Notes under the pieces: model-generated | Seen by the model: only the letters and a program-made list of their open reading frames with translations | What the model was told of the DNA's origin: nothing | Databases searched by the model: none | Shown here: piece after piece, positions 12,093 through 59,350 of the stretch | Numbering within the stretch: position 1 is the stretch's first letter | Layout: each line of letters opens with the position of its first letter | Made by a program: the position numbers and the translations under genes | Source: a virus | Taxonomy: Duplodnaviria; Caudoviricetes | Virus record (IMG/VR): IMGVR_UViG_3300025915_000017 | Coordinates: 953 to 64,952 of that record | Strand: one strand, 5' to 3' | DNA length: 64,000 bases

Positions 12093-13109
12093 ATGGCTAT
12101 TGCGTCGGGAACCGTCACGCTTGCCGATTACGCATTAATGAGCAACTCGCCATTAGTGCGGGCCGTGACTTATTCCCTCATCCTCTACTCAAACGTCATT
12201 CAGGACGTGCCGCTTTCCACCAAGAAAAGCTTGATTGTCAACGGCGCACGTTTTGAGGGCAACCTTCCTTCTGTCAACTGGAGCCAGCTCAACGCTGAAG
12301 GCGTCACCACACGTGGCACACCCACGGCTTACCAGGAACAAGCCTACATTATTCGCAACTACATTGATGTGGATAAGTTCCTGGTTGAAGAGGAAAACGC
12401 GATTGTGGACCCACGTGCGGTGCAGTCTGAGGCCTATCTGAAAGCACTCACCTACGATGTCAATTATAAGTTCTTCAAGAACGATCATGTCACTGGTGAT
12501 GTCAATGCCCCAGTAGGTATCCGCTATCGCATCGACAACGGCGGCACCTTTGGCGTGCGTCCAGAAAACAAAATCAACGGCGGTGGTTTGGACCTGTCTC
12601 AAGCAACGCTTGGCACCACGGCAGTTAATGGTAACAAATTGATTGAGTACTTGGACCAACTGCTCTGGTCAGTGGATAGCCCTGAAGGACAGGGTGTGAC
12701 GCTCTACATGAACGAAGTGATGAAGCGCAGGTTCACTTTTGCCCTGCGTAACCTGGGAACCGCAGGCGGTTTCGAGATTACACAAGATATGTTCAACCGT
12801 ACCGTTACGATGTATAAGGGTGCAGTTATCCGCGATCCTGGTTACAAGAGTGATCAGTCCACCCGTATCATCACGACCACCGAAACATCTGATGGCAGCG
12901 CTGACACAAGCTCGACATATACCAGCATCTACGCGGTGAACTACTCCACCGACCACTTCTCTGGCTGGCAGTTTGAACCCCCAAATGTTCAGGATTTGGG
13001 CTTGATCTACAACGGCGCGATATACCGCACTTTAATCGACTGGGCAGTGGGATTTAATAACGCTTCTACCCGTTCTATCGGTCGTCTGTACGGCTTGAAG
13101 CTCAGCTAG
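12093..13109 (+). CDS. Major capsid protein (HK97 fold)
   Basis: 338 aa after scaffold; N-terminal TLADYA, LPSVNWSQLNAEG, IDVDKFL and LDQLL pattern of HK97-fold capsids. Confidence 0.85.
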   Translation: MAIASGTVTLADYALMSNSPLVRAVTYSLILYSNVIQDVPLSTKKSLIVNGARFEGNLPSVNWSQLNAEGVTTRGTPTAYQEQAYIIRNYIDVDKFLVEEENAIVDPRAVQSEAYLKALTYDVNYKFFKNDHVTGDVNAPVGIRYRIDNGGTFGVRPENKINGGGLDLSQATLGTTAVNGNKLIEYLDQLLWSVDSPEGQGVTLYMNEVMKRRFTFALRNLGTAGGFEITQDMFNRTVTMYKGAVIRDPGYKSDQSTRIITTTETSDGSADTSSTYTSIYAVNYSTDHFSGWQFEPPNVQDLGLIYNGAIYRTLIDWAVGFNNASTRSIGRLYGLKLS

Positions 13110-13118
13110 AGGTACGCG

Positions 13119-13280
13119 ATGTCCATAGAATTACAAGAATTGCTTGTGCAGGCGAAGGCAGTTGCAATGAAAGATGCCGAGGTGGGACGGGTGCTCGTGG
13201 CCATCGTGAACCATCTTGCAAAGCTTGAGCATCCACCTGTGCAGGCAAAATCCTCAAAAGGGGGAAATAATGGCGACTGA
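13119..13280 (+). CDS. 53-aa hypothetical protein (not in ORF track)
   Basis: RBS gaggt; fills the gap after the capsid gene. Confidence 0.55.
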   Translation: MSIELQELLVQAKAVAMKDAEVGRVLVAIVNHLAKLEHPPVQAKSSKGGNNGD

Positions 13281-21117: not shown

Positions 21118-22674
21118 ATGACATTTATTAGTCTTGTCCCATCGATATTTACGAATGTGAAGCAGTACAACGTAAAAGGGGATGGTGTTACCGATGATAC
21201 CTCTACTATCGCTTCGGCCCTTTCCGCGATTAGTAGCACTGGTGGTGTGCTTTTCTTCCCACCTGGCACGTACCTCACTGGCAATCAAACGCTCCTGCCG
21301 AATGTGCATATCGTTGGCGCGGGTCTGGGCAATACCACGATCAAATTAAAAAATGGAGCGAACACTGATTTATTTTCCGCGCAGACAGGGAGTATCAATT
21401 TGTCAGCGGCGGCCAACGCTGGCAGTGCTGGCACACTACTCAGTTTCTCCGTCCGTGACTTGACACTTGATGGCAACAAAGCCAATCAGTCGAGCGGCAC
21501 ATCATACCCCCTCAGATTCTACGGTTACAACTTCATTCTGAGAGACTTGCAAATCATGAACGGCTACACAGGTGGCATTTTGATCGATTGGAATGGGGGG
21601 AGTGCGCTTTCCTCGCCGTCTGACCAGATGGAAAGTCTGATAGCCAACTGCAAGATCCACGATAACAACGGGATTGGCCTGCAAATGGGTGGGCCACACG
21701 ATAGCCGCATACAAAATGTGTTGAGCTTCTTGAATGGAAGCCATAACATCCATCTGGCCCCCAATGCGACGGGAACACTGGTGCTCAACAGCCATGGCTG
21801 GGGCAATCCCAATACGACTGGTGTGTGCTGCTGGATTATCGAAGCAACAGGGTGTCAGTTCAGTAACTGCGTGGCCGAAGGTTCCTATCATACAGATGTG
21901 GTTATTCTTGCCAACAACACCTCGTGGGCGGGCGGCTATGTCTATGGAGCAAGCGGTGGTGCCTCTGAAATCGGCTTTCAACTGGGACAAAATAGTGGGC
22001 AAACCCCCTATCCAGGCCAGATTTTACAATCGGCAGGTGTAACTACCTCTGTTAGTGTTGGTGGGTGTGTCATCCAAACGATGATTAATAGTTGCCCTGG
22101 TGGAGCACTCAATTGTGTCAATGAAGGCTCTAACTTCGTTGCTGCGAACATCTGGCAATCATCGGGGTCTGCTGTGATTGGGACGCCAAACACGAGTGAT
22201 GTGTATAGCTTGCAGGTGGGAGGCGCAACGGCTGATGGCACACTTGGAAAAGGTGGAGGGATACAGGTTGTTACTGGCGCTACAACTGGCTTTGTCGTCC
22301 TTGATACCAGCGGCAATACCGTATTGCAAGCCTCTGGGTTTGCTCCTGAAGGGATTATTGTTGGCGGAAACATTTCCACAAAACAATCATCAAGCGCTGC
22401 GGCTATTGCCACCAATGGAACCGTTACCACAGCAGGGATCGGTGTGGCCCGCGTAGCTCCTACCGGCAATGTGACCGGGATTATCTTGCAAGCGGGAACC
22501 ATCGCAGGGCAGCAAATTGTCGTGCTCAACGAAAGCTCATTCACATTAACGCTCAATACCACTCCTGCCACCTCCAATGTTGCTGATAGTGCAACAGAGC
22601 CAGTTATAGCCGCTCTGACAGCCAGAAAGTATTATTGGGACAGTTCTACCTCAAGATGGTATAGGAGCGCATAA
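21118..22674 (+). CDS. Pectate-lyase-like beta-helix tail spike / depolymerase
   Basis: NVKQYNVKGDGVTDDT, GGVLFFPPGTY and IVGAGLGNTTIKL (Pectate_lyase_3-type N-terminus). Confidence 0.85.
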   Translation: MTFISLVPSIFTNVKQYNVKGDGVTDDTSTIASALSAISSTGGVLFFPPGTYLTGNQTLLPNVHIVGAGLGNTTIKLKNGANTDLFSAQTGSINLSAAANAGSAGTLLSFSVRDLTLDGNKANQSSGTSYPLRFYGYNFILRDLQIMNGYTGGILIDWNGGSALSSPSDQMESLIANCKIHDNNGIGLQMGGPHDSRIQNVLSFLNGSHNIHLAPNATGTLVLNSHGWGNPNTTGVCCWIIEATGCQFSNCVAEGSYHTDVVILANNTSWAGGYVYGASGGASEIGFQLGQNSGQTPYPGQILQSAGVTTSVSVGGCVIQTMINSCPGGALNCVNEGSNFVAANIWQSSGSAVIGTPNTSDVYSLQVGGATADGTLGKGGGIQVVTGATTGFVVLDTSGNTVLQASGFAPEGIIVGGNISTKQSSSAAAIATNGTVTTAGIGVARVAPTGNVTGIILQAGTIAGQQIVVLNESSFTLTLNTTPATSNVADSATEPVIAALTARKYYWDSSTSRWYRSA

Positions 22675-25600
22675 ATGACGTATGCTTCTACTATTCTTGC
22701 AGATAACCCACAGGCATGGTATAGATTAGGCGATTTGTCTGGACTTGTAGCCGTCGATAGCAGCGGCAATGGCTACAATGCCACGTTACCGAGTACAGGT
22801 ATCACGTATAGCCAACCAGGGGCCATCTTTGGCGATAGCAATACCTCGATGGTGTTCACTAGCTCGGCCACGCTCTCACTGCCTTATAATCTCAATCCAT
22901 CCACATGGACTGCGCTCTCGTTGGAATTTTGGGTAAACACTTCTGGCATCTGGCAGTATGTGGTAGTAACTACGAGCAACTCAGGAACCACTACCACCTA
23001 TTTGAACGGCATAGTTTATAGTTCAGGCTCTGGCGATCCCGTCGTTATTGACACCGATATTTATTATGCTGGTAGCCCTCTTTCTGGAAATCTCGACGAA
23101 ATTGGCTTGTATAACTACGTCTTGACTTCTACCCAAGTCCTGAATCACTACCTCGTAGGACTGGCCGCATCGACATTCTACGCAAGCAACGTTGCCTCGA
23201 CAGTTAGCGGGCTCACGCTCTCCGATAAGATGAGCACGACGACGGGCGGAACCGAAACCAGCGTATCAGTCACCATGCCATCGTCAGGGGCAAATCTGTA
23301 TGTAGAACTGGCCAGCCAGGGCGGAACAATGAGCGGCACACCTGTTCTGCCTGCGCCCACGGGAAAAGGATGGTCTATTTCCTCGATTGCGGGTAGCACG
23401 ATCTTAGCGGGAAATTGGTCAGCAGTCTTTACGCTTGCCAAATCTGGTACGTCTAAGACTGGTGCGTCGCTTCTTGTGAGATGGTATAGGCGTACAATGG
23501 ATGGTGTGCATTATCCCATTGGTGTCTCGACGCTTTCATCGCAATCCTTCACGACTTCAAAAACCGTCTATGTTACACCTACCATTCTCTCCACACTCTG
23601 GCAGATCATACCAACTGACACGCTTTACATGGATGCATTTGTGTATAATGGTGGTTCTACCGCCTGGGCCAGTGACGTGTTTACCGTGTACGTCAGCAAT
23701 TCGGGATCTCAAGGGGTGGCGAATGATGGCGTGATTATCGCGCCACCAATGATTACGACGCCTACCGGGTTATCCTGCTACGTTGGCGTACCTGCGTTGC
23801 AAGCTGGGCCGAATATCTCAGTGAAAAATGAGTCATTCACGTTGGCGGACGCCGTTGACCAGCGCAGCGTCTTAACACTCACAGCCGAAGACCCAACAGC
23901 CGCACTTTCCCTTACGCCAAACATGCCGGTAGTGCTTGCAGATAGCACACAGGGCAAGCTCTACGATGGCTATCTGGCACCTGACAAGCAAGTCAGGCTC
24001 GCAGCTGGCAACTTATCACCACAAACAGAGCATCAACTCACCTTCGCGGATCACCACAGAGACTTCGACAAAGAAGCGAACCAGACGAATTACAGCAACT
24101 GGACTGCCGGGGATATCGCGTGTGACTTCATTCAGAGGCAACAATATAAAAATGGTGTGTGGGGTGAGTTTGCAATTGAGAGCGATTACACGCCTGCCAC
24201 ATTTGGCGCAGGCACCTTGAGCGGCACTGTGGCCACGAGCACCACCAGCCCGTTTGTGTACGCACCAAATACGTTAGTACCTCCTGTAACAACAAACACA
24301 GGGGATCTGGAATTGACGCGGGCTGGAACGCAATTCTCACTGACAGAGTCGGTCACGAGTGATTTTAGTACCGGCACGCTCACAAACATGGTAGCCAGCG
24401 GGAACGCATTGAGCCCGACGACGCAGAGTGCAATCAAGATGTCAGCAGAATTGCCACTAGCAGCCACATTGAATATTGCGGAAACTTCTAGCTATACACA
24501 AAGCGGCGGGTATTTCTCAGTCGGGGAATTCTTTGGTACCTGGGCCTATGCGCAGATATGGGCTGGCTCGAAGGTCATTGGAAGCAATGATACCTTTAAC
24601 TATGACATATGGATTTCTAGCACATCACCCGCTATTCTTGCCGGAATGGATTTTCTTTGTAGCGATGGAACGCAATTCACGCTGCAAAATGGGAATGTCG
24701 ATGTCAATGGCAGTACAGGCATCTTCGACCAGAACAATCTCTCTGTTGATGTGCTCACTGACTTGAGTGCGTATGCAAAAGATGCCTGGTTTACGCGCAA
24801 TTTCTCTATAGGCTCGCTCGCCGGGAAAACCATCACTGCTGTTTATGTGATCATTACCGGTTCTGCAGCAGGATACTATACGACCTACGTGAAAAATGTC
24901 TATCTGGGCAGTGCCTCTGGGAGCCCATTTTTCAGCACGACGGCAACTGCTACGCAGGTCAATCCACCATCTACAGCAACCGGTGGTGGCTACACTGATT
25001 CTGCAGTATTTACGTCGGTGGTTCAGGCATATCAACCTGCCACCTCATATCGTATCTCTCCGGCTCACTCCATCAGTGGGGTTGGGCTCGTGCAAGATTC
25101 AAATATTACCTGGACAGCAAGTCTTCCCGCCAATGGTCCCTCGGTAAGTACGGCAACTTCACCCTATGTTACAACCACGACCATTCCGCCAACCAATACC
25201 AGCCCATCACTTGTACTCCTGGCATCCTACGATGGGGTAACATGGCTCCCTTGTGCCAATAATAAGCCGTTACCAGGGCTACCAGCAGGAGCTAACGTGT
25301 CAGGGCTTTCTTTGTATCTCAAAGAGTCGTTTGCAGCAGGCTCCGACCCCTCGGCTATTCCATCGCTCCTGCAAGTAAACGCCATCATTAACAGTGCCGC
25401 AGCCCAAACCACGACAGACGTTGTGGCGGCATATGGCAATGCGACTGAGTGGAACAGCGGAACATATAGTGGAACAGGTTTAAATAGCAACAACCAACTG
25501 ACACTTGGAACCTATACACGCGACTGGAGTGATCACGGCACAGGGGGGCAGGTCTTTTCCTATACGTACGTGGTTGGATCTGCCACGCAATCTGCCTCCA

Positions 25601-28317: not shown

Positions 28318-28380
28318 TGCTATACTAGAACCAACTAAACAACAAGACGAGCCAGTGAGCCAGGTGTTCACTGGCTTTTT
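28318..28380 (+). promoter_or_regulatory. Extended -10 plus GAGCC hairpin leader (copy 2)
   Basis: TGCTATACT, then stem agccagtga/tcactggct (28350-28376) and a T run. Confidence 0.65.
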
Positions 28381-28400
28381 TATTTTTGGATCGGAAAAAG

Positions 28401-34964: not shown

Positions 34965-35185
34965 TGCTATACTGCGATACTGCGATACGGCGTACAAGAT
35001 GGTGAGGCTGCCATCCCCCAGTGGTTGCCTCACTCCCCCAAATCTGCTACACTCACCCTAGCTTGTCTATTTGATCGTTATCCTGCTTCTATGATGCTAA
35101 GACAAGTCTTTGGCCCGGTTCTGTCGGAATGCTACCGGGCCAGCACACACGAGCCTTGAGCCATCGAAAGATGGTTCTTTTTTTG
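34965..35185 (+). ncRNA. Putative small RNA units (promoter-hairpin tandem)
   Basis: TGCTATACT 34965, hairpin 35002-35033, TGCTACACT 35045, hairpin 35111-35142, terminator 35158-35177 plus T run. Confidence 0.4.
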
Positions 35186-36702: not shown

Positions 36703-36830
36703 CAAGAGGTTGTGTAATTGGTATACTGTGCGTGGGCAATACACCCGAAGCAAGAGCACCAGGGCCAGCAGTAAAATTATTAGCAGAGCAGAGCAAAAAG
36801 GTTTTCTGTTGGCGGCCTGGTGCTTTTGTT
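36699..36830 (+). ncRNA. Putative sRNA with promoter and long hairpin
   Basis: GTGACA-N17-TATACT (36699-36727), then stem 36752-36771/36806-36827 and a T run. Confidence 0.45.
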
Positions 36831-36832
36831 AT

Positions 36833-37105
36833 TTAGTAGGGTTTGTACTTCTCGATATCCAGGTTGGGGAAAAATCCCTGTGCTTCCTCTGGTGAAAGAC
36901 TACTGCCATATCTTGCCACATTCTGCTCATCGATGTGCTTGTCTCTGCCATAACCAACGCCGATATATGCCTTCCATTGGTCGGTATAGGTTTCCACTGC
37001 AATGATACCAACACAAGCAGTGGTGTTAAAATCGAGAACCATATGGGCTAGCGTGCCATTGGTCCACCAGTGCGAGTCGAGTATTTTGTATTCTTCCATT
37101 ATCAC
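36833..37105 (-). CDS. Hypothetical protein
   Basis: 90-aa ORF ending the leftward operon. Confidence 0.6.
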   Translation of the reverse strand: MIMEEYKILDSHWWTNGTLAHMVLDFNTTACVGIIAVETYTDQWKAYIGVGYGRDKHIDEQNVARYGSSLSPEEAQGFFPNLDIEKYKPY

Positions 37106-37694: not shown

Positions 37695-37985
37695 CTATAA
37701 ACCTCCCTCTATTTCGTCTAACATTGCGAGCAATTCGGATTCTAGTTGTTGATCCTGCTCATAGGCTTCATCTGTTGGGGTATGGACGCCACGATTCATG
37801 CGCCGATCAAGATACGCTCGTTCGCGTTGCATTTTGACCTGCAATCTGGTACGTATCCCAGTGACCCAGATGCGTGCTTCATCTGGTGACATGTCCTTAA
37901 AGGGTTTGCGCGTGGTGAGCGTCCCCTGCGGAGTTGGTTGGTAATAGCTACTTGCTGGCTTCTGTCTTCGGCTCATGGCTCTCAC
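37695..37985 (-). CDS. Hypothetical protein
   Basis: Coupled to the integrase stop. Confidence 0.6.
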   Translation of the reverse strand: MRAMSRRQKPASSYYQPTPQGTLTTRKPFKDMSPDEARIWVTGIRTRLQVKMQRERAYLDRRMNRGVHTPTDEAYEQDQQLESELLAMLDEIEGGL

Positions 37986-38980
37986 TTTCTGCTTAGAAAT
38001 GCCAGTTTATCTACAGCGTTATCATCTAAGTTCAGTTTACGGCGTTGATAATGCTCTGTCTGTCTGGGATCTTTATGACGAGCTGCATACTGTACCTGAG
38101 TAAGCGTGGCGTTGTGCTCCAATGCTAGCGTGATAAATGTGGCTCGAAGACTGTGAGGGGTAAACCTGCGCCCAATCTTCTCGGCATACTTCAACACCAT
38201 GCGCTCTATCCACTTAGGATTAATCTGCTTCTCTGTGGGATGGTCGCCACGGTCAAATCCAACAAACAGCGGAGACTCTAGTGTAAGGTTTTTGCGCTCG
38301 GAGGCATCAAGCCATTCCTGTATGTAACGTTTTACATCAACTGGTAACTTTATCGTGTCCCTGTATCCACCTTTACCAGTGACACGAATGATATAATGCC
38401 CTCTATCCATATCGATGTTACCAACCTTCAATGCTGCACATTCAGCACGCCGCAGGCCAGTGCGCAGAAGAAGAGACATCACAGCATATTCTTGCTTGCC
38501 ATATTTCGTTGAGGTGTCAATGGCTTCCAACAATTGCAGCGCCTCGTTGTCGTCCAGGGCAATATGTGGCGAATCGTCCTCACTGATCTTGAGTGGTTTA
38601 ACACTCTCAGCCGGGTTGTAAGAAATCACCCCCATGCGTCTCTGCACGTCAAGGACCTGACGGGCGACAGTAAACATGCGATTGATGCGTCGTGGCGAGC
38701 GCCTCTTCCCTTCTTCGTTCTCCTCTCCCAGATAGTGCTGATAAGCGATCATATCAGCATAGGTAATATTGGTTGCATGAGTCAGGCCTCGCTCACCTAG
38801 AAAGGCAGCAAAGGTTTTTACGTCTCGCAGATATTCTAATTGTGAACGATCTGACTGGAGACGTTGTAAAACAGTTTCCATCACTTCATCGATGACAGGC
38901 ACGCCAACAGGTACAAGGTAATTGGTCAAGTAATTCTCCCCATAAAAACTTTGTATCTCAAAACGGGAATTTGTGTACAC
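37982..38980 (-). CDS. Tyrosine recombinase (XerC/D-like integrase)
   Basis: Catalytic set TGLRRAE (R), GKGG (K), HSLR, ARHKD (H), HYQR (Y); N-terminal SAM-like domain. Confidence 0.92.
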   Translation of the reverse strand: MYTNSRFEIQSFYGENYLTNYLVPVGVPVIDEVMETVLQRLQSDRSQLEYLRDVKTFAAFLGERGLTHATNITYADMIAYQHYLGEENEEGKRRSPRRINRMFTVARQVLDVQRRMGVISYNPAESVKPLKISEDDSPHIALDDNEALQLLEAIDTSTKYGKQEYAVMSLLLRTGLRRAECAALKVGNIDMDRGHYIIRVTGKGGYRDTIKLPVDVKRYIQEWLDASERKNLTLESPLFVGFDRGDHPTEKQINPKWIERMVLKYAEKIGRRFTPHSLRATFITLALEHNATLTQVQYAARHKDPRQTEHYQRRKLNLDDNAVDKLAFLSRK

Positions 38981-53891: not shown

Positions 53892-54114
53892 TTATGAGCG
53901 GACCACAGGAGGTGCAACAATGTGGGATAGAGATATACCAAAATGGTTACAGAACATGAATTACGTATGTCTTTACGTAGTGACGACAAGCGAGAAAAAG
54001 AAGTGCGGACCCGGCCGCGAGAAATGGCAGCAAGATCTGGACAAGTTGACTGGTGAGCAGCGTGTAGCCTTGGAAGAGCGAATCGAGCGATGGGAAAGAA
54101 GGATAGCATCATGA
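53878..54114 (+). CDS. Hypothetical protein
   Basis: Overlap-coupled. Confidence 0.5.
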   Translation: MRMINYERTTGGATMWDRDIPKWLQNMNYVCLYVVTTSEKKKCGPGREKWQQDLDKLTGEQRVALEERIERWERRIAS

Positions 54115-54989
54115 CGCAGGTTCTACGGTCCCCGGTTAAGTGGATGGGCGGGAAATCAGCATCAGCCAGCCTGATAGTTGATGCTTTCCCGCTACCATCC
54201 ACCTACGACTTGTATGTTGAGCCGTTTGGCGGGGCTGCCCATGTCCTGATGGCAAAATCAGTCACTTGCAGGGAGGTCTTCAACGATCTGGATGATTTGC
54301 TCATCAACTTCTGGCAAGAAGTGCAGCGTAACGGGAAGGAGGTACAACAGCGTCTAGAGGCATTGCCGTATGCTCGTAAGTTCTATTACGATTACTGGCA
54401 TTCACTTTATGGTTCCAAGACCAAAAAGATTGCGCCAGATACCACACTCTCATCCACGGAGAAGGCTGTACGCTGGCTGTATATCCTGCGTAGCAATATG
54501 ACTGGCTTCATGCGCAATTCGCCACCATCATGGACATACATGAATGCCAGTATCCTCAAGAATGCCGCTGAACTGATCAGAGAGGTACAGGAACGCATCA
54601 AGTATGTGGCTATCGATAACCGGGACGCTATCGAGACGATCAAACGCTATGAGAAAATCCCTGGCAAGAAGCTCTTTTACGTGGACCCGCCTTACTTTGG
54701 CGCTGAGTGGTACTATCCAGCGAGTCGTGATGGCTTTGACCATGAGGGGCTCGCGCAAGCCTTGAATGCCCTTTCATCAGAGACATCGATGGTTGCACTC
54801 TCGTATTATCCTCATCCAGCAATCGATGCGCTTTATCCTGCTGAGAAGTGGAGGCGCATCACCTGGCAACAGCATAAGCCGAGTAATGTCTCAGTGAATA
54901 GCACAAATTTGGACATGGCTACTGAGATGTTGCTGTGCAATTATCCTGAGCCAGCAAGGTCATTGTGGGACATGGAGGCAGCATCATGA
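54111..54989 (+). CDS. DNA adenine methyltransferase (D12/Dam family, alpha class)
   Basis: KWMGGK, YVEPFGGAA, FNDLD and FYVDPPY. Confidence 0.92.
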   Translation: MTQVLRSPVKWMGGKSASASLIVDAFPLPSTYDLYVEPFGGAAHVLMAKSVTCREVFNDLDDLLINFWQEVQRNGKEVQQRLEALPYARKFYYDYWHSLYGSKTKKIAPDTTLSSTEKAVRWLYILRSNMTGFMRNSPPSWTYMNASILKNAAELIREVQERIKYVAIDNRDAIETIKRYEKIPGKKLFYVDPPYFGAEWYYPASRDGFDHEGLAQALNALSSETSMVALSYYPHPAIDALYPAEKWRRITWQQHKPSNVSVNSTNLDMATEMLLCNYPEPARSLWDMEAAS

Positions 54990-55204
54990 CATTCAAACAC
55001 GGCGACCCGGTCCGCAACACCAACGAACGCAGCATCCACTACGGCGTATCTGGCCTGTTCCAGCGAGTGCATAACAAGTGGACGTTCCCGACTGGACTGG
55101 CGTGCGATGTGAAGGTCGTTGGTGGGTATGGTCCGTATGGGTGCGAGGATGTCATTATGAGCGTTGCGGATCTGGAGCCAGCAGCAGAAAGTGAGGCGTC
55201 ATAA
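54986..55204 (+). CDS. Hypothetical protein
   Basis: MTFKHGDPVR start with ATGA overlap. Confidence 0.55.
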   Translation: MTFKHGDPVRNTNERSIHYGVSGLFQRVHNKWTFPTGLACDVKVVGGYGPYGCEDVIMSVADLEPAAESEAS

Positions 55205-55464
55205 TGCCAACTACGCGCAGGCCCACCCTCATGCAACGACTCACGACGATTTGCAACGCGCATGGTTGGCAGTGTGGCCGGGTCCGTGTGCTCAGTGATG
55301 CGCCACAATCGCCACAGAACACGGCGCAAACGTGTGCGAGGATGAATGCTATAGCAGTGTGGCGTGGCGCGAGAGTAGAGTACCTGGGGATGATTGCGGA
55401 GGTGCAGAAGTGGAGTGATGAGCAGATAGAAAAGAGATTGGATGAACTGGAGGCGCAGGCATGA
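55204..55464 (+). CDS. Hypothetical protein
   Basis: Coupled operon. Confidence 0.55.
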   Translation: MPTTRRPTLMQRLTTICNAHGWQCGRVRVLSDAPQSPQNTAQTCARMNAIAVWRGARVEYLGMIAEVQKWSDEQIEKRLDELEAQA

Positions 55465-55805
55465 GAAAACCATTACACATCCCGTCAAATGGGCAAGAAA
55501 TGGTCCTGGAAGGTTTCGACGTGCCATCATCGGTAAGTCAAGACAACACGTCGAGAATCGCACCACAATCACAACCGAAGCTATCCGTTGTCTATGGTGT
55601 CTGTTGCAAATGTGGTGATCGACCTGCCGTGTTAAAATCTCCATCAGGCAATCCAGGGAATATCTATTGTGAGAAGTGTGGGCGTAGTCGATGCGGGGTG
55701 CATACAATTGCGGATTTTGAACTGGATGAGAGTACTGGACTCTGGCTGGATCCGCATTGTATCAAGCGCGTTTGGAAACAACAGAATTTGGCTGAAGAGA
55801 AGTAG
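55461..55805 (+). CDS. Cys-rich Zn-binding protein
   Basis: CCKC and CEKC...C. Confidence 0.55.
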   Translation: MRKPLHIPSNGQEMVLEGFDVPSSVSQDNTSRIAPQSQPKLSVVYGVCCKCGDRPAVLKSPSGNPGNIYCEKCGRSRCGVHTIADFELDESTGLWLDPHCIKRVWKQQNLAEEK

Positions 55806-56468
55806 AGAGCTTTGTAGAAGAATAATCACTTCTTGTTTGAAGTACGAGCCAGGACCACAGAGGCCAGGGCGACCAGGACAATCCAGCAAATCACGAATAT
55901 CTGCATTCGGTATTCTCACTACTATAGACGCTTTACACACTCCAAAATCAAAAAAACACGCTGACGAGGATCATTTTCTACTTGGTAAAGCATTGTAACA
56001 ATGGATAAGTGGCATGAGTCAGCGTGCAGAGCTATTGTAACAGAAAGGGTGTAGCACGCCAACGTGGTTAGAAGTTCTTGCAACTTTGGTTTTGTCCGAT
56101 ATTGTTTAGCTATATTAAACAACGAAAATGTTGGCGTGCGTGTGTCAGTATATCGCAATATGTCGCTTGGCGATAGGGCTTCCCCGTTAAAAATGTATTA
56201 AATTATGTCAATCTATACTATTATGCTTGTATGGTTGCCAAAGTATAGCTAAACATTTCGATTGATGCTATCATGAGGGAAGAGATAATTCTCTGTGAAA
56301 GTAAATCTGACCTCACTGCAGGAGCCCTGGTTATCCGAGCCAGGGCTCTTTGCCGTTTCGGATGATTGGTTATCTGAACGCTTGTTCGTTGACACACCTA
56401 TACTCTACAACTACACTTCTAGCACATACATCCCTCATCCACTATTTTCACTCAAGAAAGGACTTATC

Positions 56469-56876
56469 ATGCGTCACTCTTTGCGCCAGCGGATCTGGAA
56501 TTCCAACCTGACTGGCTTCTTTATCATCGGTGGCATCCTTCTCTTCATGCTCTGCGCGTGTAGTAGCTCGCTCTACAGTCGGCAACTGGGCCTCTTCTTC
56601 CGCAGCCTTGCACCATCATGCTCCATTGGCGTAGACACGGCCACCGTGACAGTACAAGCCTGGTCCGCGAATCGTGATTGCCAGGAGATGCTATCAGGAC
56701 ACGGCAATTTCACGGAGATCGACTGGACACGATACGAGGCGGACCAGGTGAGCGCACCAAATATGACTGGAGCAGTGGTGTGCGAGATGGATATCGCTGG
56801 CAGGCACGTCACGATACGGGATAGCCCTGCGTCGAATGCGGGTGCTGACCTGTGCTATCTTTTGCGGCATGCGTGA
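56469..56876 (+). CDS. Membrane-anchored or lipoprotein-like Cys-containing accessory protein
   Basis: RBS aaagga before MRHSL; TM FFIIGGILLFMLCAC. Confidence 0.55.
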   Translation: MRHSLRQRIWNSNLTGFFIIGGILLFMLCACSSSLYSRQLGLFFRSLAPSCSIGVDTATVTVQAWSANRDCQEMLSGHGNFTEIDWTRYEADQVSAPNMTGAVVCEMDIAGRHVTIRDSPASNAGADLCYLLRHA

Positions 56877-56880
56877 TGTG

Positions 56881-57177
56881 AGAGAAGTGAGAAGGGATCG
56901 TTGCTGTTTGATCCCTTCGAGCAAAGGACTACACGCTTTTTGCCGTAGCGCAAGGATAGTATAGCATGAGAGGGGAAAGTGAGAGCAGATAGCGAGTAGT
57001 CTATCTGCTCGGTCTATAGAAGATGGTTCTGAGTATAAACCCTGAGCTAGTATAGCAGGTGAGGGATAGTGGAAGAAGTGAAAGGGACTCTACTCAGTAG
57101 TGAGTCCCTTTGTGAAGATGGTATTGCAGTGCGCGTAGACGCAGCCCCAGTATAACAGTGGTGATTCTTCCTGTCGA
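56881..57177 (-). ncRNA. Tandem array of three putative small RNAs
   Basis: TG(C/T)TATACT at 57148-57157, 57048-57057 and 56957-56966; each is followed 37-39 nt downstream by a 9-10 bp hairpin and TCACTT plus a pyrimidine tail. Confidence 0.55.
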
Positions 57178-57271
57178 ATTTCAATCCTCTCACGCTACGC
57201 CCTCAACAATATAAGGGTATCATGAATTTGTCGTGGGTAAGGGACAAATAAGCGCAGCAACAAAAAGTACA

Positions 57272-57337
57272 ATCTCAGGAATTTGTTGTGGGTGGGGACT
57301 CTTGAATGGACTGTCACCCACAACAAATTCCTGAGAT
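57272..57337. repeat. Perfect 23-bp inverted repeat with 20-nt loop
   Basis: ATCTCAGGAATTTGTTGTGGGTG / CACCCACAACAAATTCCTGAGAT; degenerate direct copy at 57224-57243. Confidence 0.85.
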
Positions 57338-57338
57338 A

Positions 57339-57503
57339 TCAGCTTTCTTTCTCAAATGCTTTATAGAATGCTGTCGGGATAGCTGTGGTTTGAGGGGTCT
57401 CACAGGTCCCGCAATAGTGAGAGTGACCAATCATGTAGAATGGCTTGCCACATTTGAGACAATCTACACGTGGAGGACAAATGTGTGTGTGGTTGTTTTT
57501 GTT
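57339..57503 (-). pseudogene. 3' part of a Zn-finger gene interrupted by ISL3
   Basis: Joins in frame with 59351-59400 after IS removal to give the 68-aa MIEYQRCARC...CLKC...CGTC...KES. Confidence 0.75.
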
Positions 57504-57532
57504 GGCTTTTCGGATTAACTGATTGATAGAGG

Positions 57533-58819
57533 TTAGAAAACCCCTTCCTCTATCAATCGTGTCAGGGTTGATACGCTCACTCCAAGAGTGAGCTGTCGCT
57601 GGTGATCAACCTTGTTCACATCAAAGCCGGTTCCATATTTGGGACGATGCTGGACATGCAGCCCCTTTGAATAGAGGATCTTTGCCCGAAGCGCCTCAAA
57701 CGAATAGCCTCTGCCAAGACGGTTGGCTATTTTTGTCAGGCCATTGAGCGATTCGACATAGGCCGTTGTATAAGGATGATCCCAGTAATTCAAAATCTCA
57801 TTGTGCCAGTTCCCCAACGCTGTGAGAAGCGGCTGGAAGGCAGGTGCTAACTCACCAGGAATAGCAGCCTTCCATTCACGAAAAGCAACCACAGCGGCAG
57901 GGCGATCTGGAACTTTCCAGATGTCAAAAAAGTCTTCTTTCAGCCGGTAGGCTGTTCCTAACAACGGGAAGTTGTTGATCCACGCTTCTAATATCAGACG
58001 CTTTTTCTCGTCTAAATCTTTCTCGCGTCGTAAAAGAATATATTTGTCGTGCATCAGCGTTCTTCTCTGGCGGTCACTTAAGCTGGCCCGTACCTCTTTA
58101 CGCACGCGATCTAATGCTTCATTTGCCATTTTGACCACATGGAAGTGATCGATCACGACCTTTGCCCCAGGCAGTGCTATGGTGGCCGCATCATAGTAAG
58201 GTTGCCACATGTCAATAGCAACCACTTCAATTTTGTCGCGGTTTTCAAGCATGCTCAGATACTTGAGGACCGTTTTCTTATTCCGATCTTTGAGCAGATC
58301 CACAATTGTTCGCTCTTTGACATTTGCCAACACGCAACGCATCTGATTGGCTAAATGCACCTCATCGATCCCTAAATGAGTAGGAGTAATAAAGGTATAG
58401 AGAGACTTCTGCTTCTCTGTGAACTCCTGAAAGATGAGCCTGACCAGTTTTTCGTCTACACCCACTTCATTAGCCACATGGGTAAAAGGGCGCGTGAGAG
58501 CCTGCTGTCCAATATACTCCACCAGGCGGATCGTCATATCGTGTTTCTCATCCACATCAGGCAAGGTTTCCGAAAAGGTTCTTTCGCAGGAATGGCAGAA
58601 GAAACGCCGACGCTGCACGAGAATACCTGTGCGTTTTCCTAATGTTGGAACATCCATAATGTGGTGATCACGTTTTCCATAACGCACAATGTTGGGAGAT
58701 GTACAGTAGAGGCAAGCTGCTGGGGTAGGGATTGGCTCTGCATGAACACGGTGATCGTATTCATTACTTTCAACATGAAACACGTTCCAATCCTCCAAAT
58801 TCAGGAGATTCATGGTCAA
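57533..58819 (-). CDS. ISL3-family DDE transposase
   Basis: Zn finger CLYC...CHSC, LGIDEV, VAIDMWQPY, VIDHFHVVK, YVESLNG..K...GRGY. Confidence 0.95.
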   Translation of the reverse strand: MTMNLLNLEDWNVFHVESNEYDHRVHAEPIPTPAACLYCTSPNIVRYGKRDHHIMDVPTLGKRTGILVQRRRFFCHSCERTFSETLPDVDEKHDMTIRLVEYIGQQALTRPFTHVANEVGVDEKLVRLIFQEFTEKQKSLYTFITPTHLGIDEVHLANQMRCVLANVKERTIVDLLKDRNKKTVLKYLSMLENRDKIEVVAIDMWQPYYDAATIALPGAKVVIDHFHVVKMANEALDRVRKEVRASLSDRQRRTLMHDKYILLRREKDLDEKKRLILEAWINNFPLLGTAYRLKEDFFDIWKVPDRPAAVVAFREWKAAIPGELAPAFQPLLTALGNWHNEILNYWDHPYTTAYVESLNGLTKIANRLGRGYSFEALRAKILYSKGLHVQHRPKYGTGFDVNKVDHQRQLTLGVSVSTLTRLIEEGVF

Positions 58820-58926
58820 GATGCTCCTTCAGTATCAACCAGTAATTCCGAGCAAGCTTGATCATGATACAAGAAGTAAGCACGGAGATCCAGTCCATTG
58901 CTTTCCCCGTGCTTACTTCTACGAAA

Positions 58927-59202
58927 CTATTCAACAACCTGATACGTAATCCGCAAGAGTTCATGAGGCTTGCCTTCCGATGTTCCCTCTGCACACTGAT
59001 GACGAACCTTTTCCGCGATAAGTCCTTTCCTAATCAATGCTCTTACTGTTCCAATAGCAACATCATCCATACCCAATCCCGCCCCGTAATCTTTGACTTC
59101 ATCTCCTGTAATGCTGCGCATAGAACACAGTGTTTTTCCTGCCCGCATTTTTTCCAGAATGCTTTTTTGTACTGTATTTGGCTTCGCTTGTGCTGCGATC
59201 AT
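58927..59202 (-). CDS. IS passenger protein of unknown function
   Basis: RBS ggagg; lies inside the TIRs upstream of the transposase, followed by a 14-bp hairpin at 58872-58920. Confidence 0.65.
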   Translation of the reverse strand: MIAAQAKPNTVQKSILEKMRAGKTLCSMRSITGDEVKDYGAGLGMDDVAIGTVRALIRKGLIAEKVRHQCAEGTSEGKPHELLRITYQVVE

Positions 59203-59350
59203 GGTATCCTCCATGTATATAGGTATAAAATCGGAATAAATGGTTGGTATTAAGAAGAGTATAACATGTAATTACAAGTTTGTCAACCAATAAATCCGAT
59301 TTTAGGGAAGTTTGTACAAGAGAGAGGTCAATCAGTTAATCCGAAAAGCC

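Follow-up and report, generated by a model that had tools for sequence, protein, structure and literature searches.

Three short units that follow one another head to tail on the minus strand of a phage genome are best explained as an array of tandem sibling small RNA (sRNA) cassettes. They lie in a stretch of DNA of 64,000 nucleotides (nt), called the window here, which covers positions 953-64952 of a 64,952-base-pair (bp) IMG/VR virus record (IMGVR_UViG_3300025915_000017), rated 100% complete. The periods of the array are 100 and 91 nt, and each unit combines a promoter motif, a variable segment, a hairpin and a conserved tail. In the reading that we prefer, with a probability of roughly 0.55, the number of cassettes varies between relatives, the third unit is tied to a neighbouring gene that converges on the array (the moron), and the outer units would be exchangeable payloads acting in trans. 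We take the array to be a real, selected and modular feature. It is of the phage- or moron-associated sibling sRNA type and not a categorically new system.

Architecture, promoters and relatives of the array

The units of the window are named U1, U2 and U3, and their promoters P1, P2 and P3. Their elements are as follows.

57172-57177, minus strand: -35-like hexamer TCGACA of P1, 17 nt upstream of the P1 -10
57149-57157, minus strand: extended -10 of P1, TGTTATACT
57076-57142, minus strand: predicted U1 RNA body, ~67 nt, with the +1 G at 57142 and the CACUU end at 57076
57110-57102 and 57090-57082: arms of the U1 3' hairpin, followed by TCACTT from 57081
57058-57075, minus strand: spacer 1, G-free and pyrimidine-rich, between CACTT and P2
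57049-57057, minus strand: extended -10 of P2, TGCTATACT, without a -35
56977-57042, minus strand: predicted U2 RNA body, ~66 nt
57010-57001 and 56992-56983: arms of the U2 hairpin, followed by TCACTT at 56982-56977
56967-56976, minus strand: spacer 2, a G-free pyrimidine tract
56958-56966, minus strand: extended -10 of P3, TGCTATACT
56885-56951, minus strand: predicted U3 RNA body, ~67 nt
56918-56910 and 56899-56891: arms of the U3 3' hairpin, followed by TCACTT at 56890-56885

The geometry of the units is nearly constant. All three extended -10s match the motif TGNTATACT, 38 nt separate the end of the -10 from the hairpin in U1 and U2 and 39 nt in U3, and TCACTT lies 75-76 nt from the start of the -10 in every window unit. 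The stems are AAGGGACTC/GAGTCCCTT in U1, GAGCAGATAG/CTATCTGCTC in U2 and GAAGGGATC/GATCCCTTC in U3; each pairs perfectly over 9-10 bp, and TCACTT abuts each of them directly. U1 and U2 have ACCATCTTC and the loop sequence ACTACT in common, their shared motif being 9 nt long and their payloads otherwise unrelated. The single-stranded stretch of U1 holds ACCAUCUUC, and U3 runs from a 5' hairpin with two G-U pairs through the linker CCUUUGCUC to the 3' hairpin and TCACTT. No open reading frame (ORF) is conserved in the units, which contain just ORFs of 28-48 amino acids (aa) that are not kept in the relative L121 described below. An earlier note on this DNA had described the three units with their periods, extended -10s and TCGACA hexamer, the 37-39 nt segment before hairpins of differing sequence, the elements shared by U1 and U2, and the lack of an ORF, and all of these are present. 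Its conserved TCACTT is found in the three units as well, but the pyrimidine tail that it described is not a U-tract and the hairpins are not canonical terminators.

The extended -10 is a recurrent feature of this phage group. The window contains nine copies of TGNTATACT compared to 1.18 expected, a count that none of 100 shuffles reaches, and a triplet on the same strand within 210 nt has a chance expectation of ~1e-3. Across the window and ten related phage genomes, 16 of the 57 sites lie inside long ORFs (p~7e-14), where the long-ORF proxy covers 75% of the sequence of these 11 genomes. The remaining six window sites all lie between genes: three point towards genes that have a Shine-Dalgarno (SD) sequence and a start codon, and three precede segments of ~55-180 nt ending in canonical T-run terminators, the site at 34965 reaching its terminator via a second -10. 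In seven of the eight units compared below, a G stands at offset 15 from the start of the -10 (7 nt past the -10); in the unit U2' it is a C. The alignment column at the predicted +1 is an invariant G. Because the motif is enriched, intergenic, correctly oriented at real genes and accompanied by a G at +1, there are good sequence grounds to regard it as the promoter motif of the phage group. Since the three array promoters face no protein-coding gene, their products would be non-coding or antisense. A role of the units as tandem promoters for messenger RNA (mRNA) was rejected, as there are no minus-strand genes downstream.

A scan with the moron protein found three metagenome contigs, L120, L121 and L122, two of which carry the array. 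L121, with a moron protein 93% identical to that of the window, has four units (U0, U1, U2' and U3), and L120, with a moron protein 100% identical, has one (U3), so the number of units across L120, the window and L121, the three contigs with the array, is one, three or four. Together they give eight units, five of them distinct. U0 is a new unit with the stem GGGGAAC/GTTCCCC followed by TCCACTTTTC. U2' replaces the payload and hairpin of U2 with an unrelated payload and a new 9-bp stem, AGAGGACGT/ACGTCCTCT, and retains the -10, CTCACTT and the pyrimidine spacer; it measures 107 nt compared to 91 nt for U2, and is thus 16 nt longer. Four of the five distinct units have CACTT 76-77 nt from the -10. 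When all eight are aligned, the mean column identity is 60%, driven by the promoter and the tail, and further elements common among units are AAGGGA-type arms and CACTT. The earlier note had described a conserved spacing with a variable payload and proposed a search for relatives that differ in unit number or payload. Such relatives were found, and in them promoter, hairpin and tail are kept while the payload varies.

The comparison with these relatives carries most weight for the proposed RNAs. The body of U1 is identical at 61 of 61 positions between the window and L121, and that of U3 at 61 of 61 in L120 and 60 of 61 in L121 (the compared body is the 61 nt at offsets 16-76 from the -10, which excludes the last bases of CACUU). 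The predicted RNA bodies are therefore 98-100% identical, compared to 91% for the adjacent ORF, in which 36 of 408 nt differ in L121. The 6-nt discriminator of U3, between the -10 and +1, is different in all three contigs, and the spacers past CACTT are rewritten in L121 with their composition retained. The conserved block thus runs from the predicted +1 G through CACUU, ~67 nt, as a discrete RNA product would lead one to expect. The mosaic junctions fall on cassette borders: homology between the window and L121 breaks off exactly at the -35 of P1, and homology to L120 exactly at the -10 of P3, with the -10 included and an unrelated minus-strand coding gene upstream of it in L120. In the window, L120 and L121 alike, moron and U3 are co-inherited.

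The predicted RNAs fold better than expected from their composition, and better on the minus strand. Fold z-scores against shuffles are -4.8, -5.2 and -3.4 for U1, U2 and U3 on the minus strand versus -2.0, -3.1 and -1.8 on the plus strand, and the 5' hairpin of U3 is specific to the minus strand, its two G-U pairs being A-C mismatches on the other. In the alignment of the eight units, 84.7% of the cells are paired versus 74.5 +/- 2.8 in shuffles (0/500), and six pairs have double-sided changes (3/500 shuffles), with all slid controls lower; this alignment was fitted to the covariance model, so the counts lean towards structure. Direct inspection finds in each distinct unit a perfect stem of 7-10 bp abutting CACTT.

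Three-prime ends, proposed mechanism and rival explanations

The 3' ends of the units are unusual. A stand-alone sRNA gene would be expected to have its own promoter, which each unit has by sequence, and a GC-rich hairpin followed by a U-tract, of which the hairpin is present and the U-tract is not. The tails are C-rich, with a Carafa-type tail score of 0.3-1.4, compared to 2.1-4.6 for the canonical terminators of the same phage and its relatives, and a terminator scan of the window calls none of the three unit hairpins. The tails being poor terminators, the units may not be the self-contained transcription units of the earlier description. The spacers after the hairpins amount to 121 nt, with 61 C, 38 T, 21 A and 1 G (p~8e-14 for the shortage of G). 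Their sequence varies while their composition is held, which implies selection for an unstructured C-rich, G-free tract. Rho-loading sites are classically recognised by such a tract, which would serve just as well for anti-Shine-Dalgarno-like pairing.

In the preferred reading, each cassette would be driven by a -35-independent extended -10 (TGNTATACT), with initiation at a G 7 nt downstream. A variable 5' part of ~45 nt, made of a small hairpin and a single-stranded linker, would be followed by a 3' hairpin of 7-10 bp whose sequence differs between cassettes while its pairing is retained, and then by the invariant CACUU and a C/U-rich spacer without G that extends to the next promoter. The products would be RNAs of ~67-75 nt with 3' ends at or just past CACUU, which may be formed by weak intrinsic termination, by Rho acting on the C-rich, G-free tract, or by processing. 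These RNAs would act by base pairing. U3 would most likely act in cis on the moron transcript or its read-through, as an antisense RNA or by transcriptional interference, and U0, U1, U2 and U2' may be exchangeable trans-acting payloads with targets in the host or in phages.

Several points weigh against this reading. As the hairpins have no U-tract and low tail scores, read-through past them is likely and discrete 3' ends are unproven. The complementarity between U3 and the SD of the moron (AGUCCUUU with AAAGGACU, 8 bp) is not significant, ranking 42nd of 322 initiation regions by cofolding, and was rejected as evidence. A distant moron homologue in L122, 47% identical, adjoins a cassette of ~80 nt driven by TGCTATACT, but here gene and cassette share one strand and the cassette ends in a canonical terminator, so the convergent geometry is not universal. 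The array family is known from three contigs only, and the high identity of U1 and U3 could come from recent recombination instead of purifying selection.

The main rival is an explanation that we consider a good deal less probable: nested read-through transcripts with one to three hairpins would run antisense into the moron or be cut at CACUU, silencing or buffering the moron through convergent transcription or double-stranded RNA, with no separate trans-acting RNAs. Here the poor unit tails, none of them called by the scan, are just what is expected; the array converges on the moron, whose transcript has no U-tract terminator before a 23-bp hairpin on the far side of the array; and U3 is co-inherited with the moron, with a module boundary exactly at the -10 of P3. 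CACUU(U/C) partly resembles what we take to be an RNase E-type RN|WUU site. However, conservation starts at the predicted +1 and stops right past CACUU, as for discrete ~67-nt products, and interference needs neither a variable 5' payload in a conserved architecture nor the replacement of cassettes. The same-strand cassette of the L122 homologue also fits poorly. It is improbable that the array is simply an insulator, in which promoter-hairpin roadblocks stop read-through from the upstream operon and the moron and the RNAs themselves are functionless. Roadblocks would not need near-perfect U1 and U3 bodies next to scrambled spacers, the unit hairpins are weak terminators in both directions, and the window already has the 23-bp hairpin upstream, even though in each of the three array contigs the units occupy the space between convergent genes, and L120 and L121 have no other terminator between the upstream minus-strand gene and the first unit.

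If instead the plus strand were the functional one, the hairpins and purine-rich tracts would be stabilising elements in the 3' untranslated region of the moron mRNA and TGNTATACT would be incidental. The region does come directly after the moron stop codon, and the plus-strand transcript probably runs through it. This explanation is nonetheless very unlikely, given three exact promoter motifs at a fixed distance from the hairpins with a G at offset 15 in all window units, weaker folding on the plus strand, where G-U pairs turn into A-C mismatches, and a homology to L120 that ends at and includes the -10 of P3. Least credible of all is a chance cluster or a set of decayed remnants of promoter-gene-terminator morons, the latter being one of the outcomes that the earlier note had named as fatal to its proposal. 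Although the phage group is highly mosaic in this region, such an origin is disfavoured by the constant 75-77 nt geometry, by ACCATCTTC, ACTACT, AAGGGA-type arms and CACTT shared among units, and by unit bodies more strongly conserved than the adjacent ORF.

A broader version of the sibling-cassette reading is also doubtful at present. In it, the array would be reshuffled by recombination, and the hairpin-CACUU, the G-free tract and TGNTATACT would serve as exchange points for ~45-nt payloads that phages gain, lose and swap among themselves, each aimed at a different transcript of the host or of a competitor, for example one involved in defence or superinfection. If true, this traffic would parallel, at the level of RNA, that of morons or integron cassettes.

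Database searches and comparison with known systems

Beyond L120 and L121, the searches turned up no further copies of the array. Rfam returned no relevant family at the gathering threshold for the whole window or at E<=10 for 56700-57400. Its weak matches were of microRNA type, confined to the separate 23-bp hairpin; CRISPR-DR9 (a model of clustered regularly interspaced short palindromic repeats, CRISPR) at 57178-57198, outside the units, with 17 bits versus a gathering threshold of 45; and STnc450 inside U2, with 13.5 bits versus 37 and an E of 6.4. A blastn search of 56000-58000 against 50,697 phage records found no match. A covariance model, R1, was built from the eight units; in 669 kb of related phage DNA just these training units score.

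The host lineage, as far as the sequence tells, is probably in the Chloroflexota, at phylum level only. In genome G184, which is from the phylum of an Anaerolineales metagenome-assembled genome, i.e., Chloroflexota, a prophage protein shares 79% identity with the capsid protein of the phage. Among 151 Chloroflexota genomes of the order of G184, R1 matched none. In IMG/VR, a two-unit pattern with TCACTT gave five hits, all of them chance, a relaxed pattern gave 41 loci, none above 18 bits with R1 (no unit in 40 pattern-selected loci), and the exact cores of U1 and U3 had no matches. In ten near-complete related phages, whose capsids are 59-84% identical, neither DNA matching 54000-57503 nor any array of hairpins with TCACTT was found, and the array is also missing from relatives identified through the DnaB helicase (49% identity). 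No significant target was predicted within the phage itself. The complement of the motif shared by U1 and U2, GAAGATGGT, has 26 near-matches versus 15 expected, one of them in a cassette at 35 kb, and was judged too weak.

The arrangement, which the earlier note did not recognise as a named system, has close precedents for tandem siblings (PMC4211561) and for convergent prophage sRNAs (PMC4104026). In lambdoid prophages of enterohaemorrhagic Escherichia coli (EHEC), convergent sRNAs of 51-60 nt (AgvB, AsxR, EcOnc01-03), some of them anti-sRNAs, lie 3' of moron coding sequences (CDSs) (Tree et al. 2014, PMC4104026). They occur as homologous copies that vary in the 5' part and agree in the 3' part, between the moron CDS and the next ORF (PMC4104026), and are the nearest precedent. 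The present array has what is described for them (a length of about 50-60 nt, convergence, a place beyond the 3' end of a moron CDS, and a 5' part that varies before a 3' part that is conserved): it is phage-borne, its predicted RNAs are short (~67 nt), and they converge on the 3' end of a moron. It differs in having no sequence or Rfam relationship to them, in its one to four head-to-tail units at one locus, each with its own extended -10, in 3' hairpins with an invariant CACUU and a G-free C/U spacer in place of a U-tract, and in the host phylum, Chloroflexota.

Tandem sibling sRNAs include PrrF1/PrrF2, OmrA/OmrB, AbcR1/AbcR2 and the tandem csRNAs (Caswell et al. 2014, PMC4211561), and read-through of the first terminator can yield a longer RNA such as PrrH (PMC4211561). 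What defines them, at least two homologous sRNA genes arranged head to tail with their own promoters, is seen here in the shared geometry and motifs. The array resembles them further in that its units are partly alike and partly divergent and differ in number from one relative to another. However, sibling sRNAs are usually more than 65% identical throughout and have canonical intrinsic terminators, whereas here the payloads are largely unrelated, the stems are wholly different, one cassette has been replaced between relatives that are 91% identical, and the array is on a phage.

Other systems were compared as well. In the type I toxin-antitoxin systems of Gram-positive prophages, such as bsrG/SR4 and txpA/RatA, a convergent antisense RNA overlaps the toxin gene at its 3' end. 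U3 and the moron are similar in that a gene for a small membrane-targeted protein and a convergent small RNA at its 3' end form one module, but the moron encodes 135 aa with an exported domain and not a hydrophobic peptide of less than 60 aa, and the extra exchangeable units have no counterpart there. The terminated lambda PR'-tR' leader, upstream of the late genes, also consists of a promoter followed by a short structured transcript, and this layout fits cassettes upstream of holin genes (34965-35185 and one in the G184 prophage). The array at 57 kb was rejected as a leader of this type: every downstream gene is on the plus strand, so antitermination would lead into no gene of the array's own strand. 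A CRISPR array or RNA anti-CRISPR would have spacers between repeats that are almost the same or between hairpins mimicking a CRISPR repeat, and the array does not show this. The earlier note had suggested guide, decoy or anti-CRISPR RNAs, but the hairpins of the five distinct units all differ from one another, and no CRISPR repeat model of Rfam matches inside the units. Type III toxin-antitoxin (toxI) needs near-identical repeats of ~36 nt and a ToxN/AbiQ endoribonuclease, and was set aside, as the period here is 91-107 nt and the payloads are unrelated. Neither neighbour of the array, the exported protein or a Zn-ribbon ORF, has a Pfam or PHROG toxin match.

Genomic neighbourhood and significance

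The phage, from soil, is tailed and temperate and encodes a portal, a major head protein, a tail spike, an endolysin, DnaB and methyltransferases. Besides the array, the following features of the window are discussed.

37982-38980: tyrosine integrase
56469-56876, plus strand: moron, a 135-aa exported or membrane-anchored Cys-rich protein, convergent with the array
57272-57337: perfect 23-bp inverted repeat with a 20-nt loop, then TGTACTTTTTG on the minus strand
57504-59350, minus strand: complete ISL3-family insertion sequence (IS), 1,847 bp, with its DDE_Tnp_ISL3 transposase at 58819-57533
59400-59351 and 57495-57339, minus strand: 68-aa Zn-ribbon ORF split by the IS, with three CxxC pairs and one more Cys

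The moron has its own promoter (TTGACA-17-TACACT at 56389-56417) and the SD AAAGGA, its N-terminus is signal-peptide- or lipobox-like (MRHSLRQR..FFIIGGILLFMLCAC), and the array lies in its 3' flank. Its reading frame is, by its substitutions, under purifying selection: 23 of the 36 nt differences from L121 are at third codon positions. In the overlapping 58-aa antisense ORF, six of seven changes are nonsynonymous. Four Cys in the exported part are the same in the window and L121. The protein has no Pfam or PHROG match, and the family is very rare, with four matching clusters among 5.8 billion proteins; three other homologues, P0002-P0004, are 59%, 54% and 63% identical. Upstream of its intact moron gene, at positions 1-213, L120 has another copy of the moron promoter region and N-terminus. 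This copy is truncated and has diverged (77% identity with 56308-56539 of the window), which points to a past tandem duplication of the moron.

Minus-strand ORFs downstream of the array were considered as genes and rejected as spurious by their codon-position patterns, among them a 222-aa ORF at 55039-55707. The segment 54965-55805 holds three small plus-strand genes, with third-position mismatch periodicity against the G184 prophage, one of which has CxxC motifs. The next 580 nt (55806-56388) are AT-rich and have no convincing ORF.

On the other side of the array, the 23-bp hairpin with its TTTTTG comes right after the stop codon of the Zn-ribbon ORF and is likely the terminator of the upstream minus-strand operon, and it bounds the array region upstream. 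The 19-nt core of this repeat recurs in a third direct copy (17/19) at 57220-57238, 96 nt downstream on the minus strand and just before P1. The repeat and its third copy may represent a terminator combined with an operator-like site, or else the remnant of a small mobile element; both are absent from L121. The start of the Zn-ribbon ORF overlaps the stop of an upstream 106-aa ORF (ATGA), and L121 has neither the Zn-ribbon gene nor the IS. The ISL3 element has terminal inverted repeats matching at 23 of 23 positions (GGCTTTTCGGATTAACTGATTGA), an 8-bp target duplication, AACAAAAA, and a passenger ORF of ~95 aa (59214-58927) with its own TTGACA-17-TGTTATACT promoter and a hairpin terminator. The idea that the array is ISL3 cargo was rejected, since it lies 327 nt outside the IS and L121 has the array without the IS. 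As a guide to the host the transposase was uninformative, its closest match among GTDB representative genomes being just 34% identical.

Small promoter-hairpin cassettes seem to be common in the phage group. Three further candidate small RNAs in the window, at 28318-28390 (+), 36719-36835 (+) and 34965-35185 (+), consist of a TGNTATACT promoter and a short terminated segment. The last, the cassette at 35 kb, lies directly upstream of a holin-like gene, as does its counterpart in the G184 prophage (L040, ~13000-13130). The cassette pair at 35 kb had earlier been linked to the array, but R1 matches neither it nor the other two segments of the window. The related phage G411 (IMGVR_UViG_3300012200_000009) has two TGNTATACT promoters 91 nt apart at 22631-22830: a canonical terminator follows the first, its T-run merging into the second -10, and the second reads convergently into a gene similar to Xis or helix-turn-helix genes.

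Almost nothing is known of riboregulation in the Chloroflexota and their phages. The locus supplies three to five sequence-defined candidate sRNAs with predicted 5' ends and a conserved, non-classical 3' motif, and its natural variants, with one, three or four units and one swapped payload, are in themselves a comparative experiment. Should the RNAs prove real, the hairpin-CACUU and the G-free tract would point to non-canonical sRNA 3' ends, whether by Rho, by processing or through an anti-Shine-Dalgarno-like seed. The turnover of cassettes would then mean that phages trade small RNAs as modules, much as they do protein morons.

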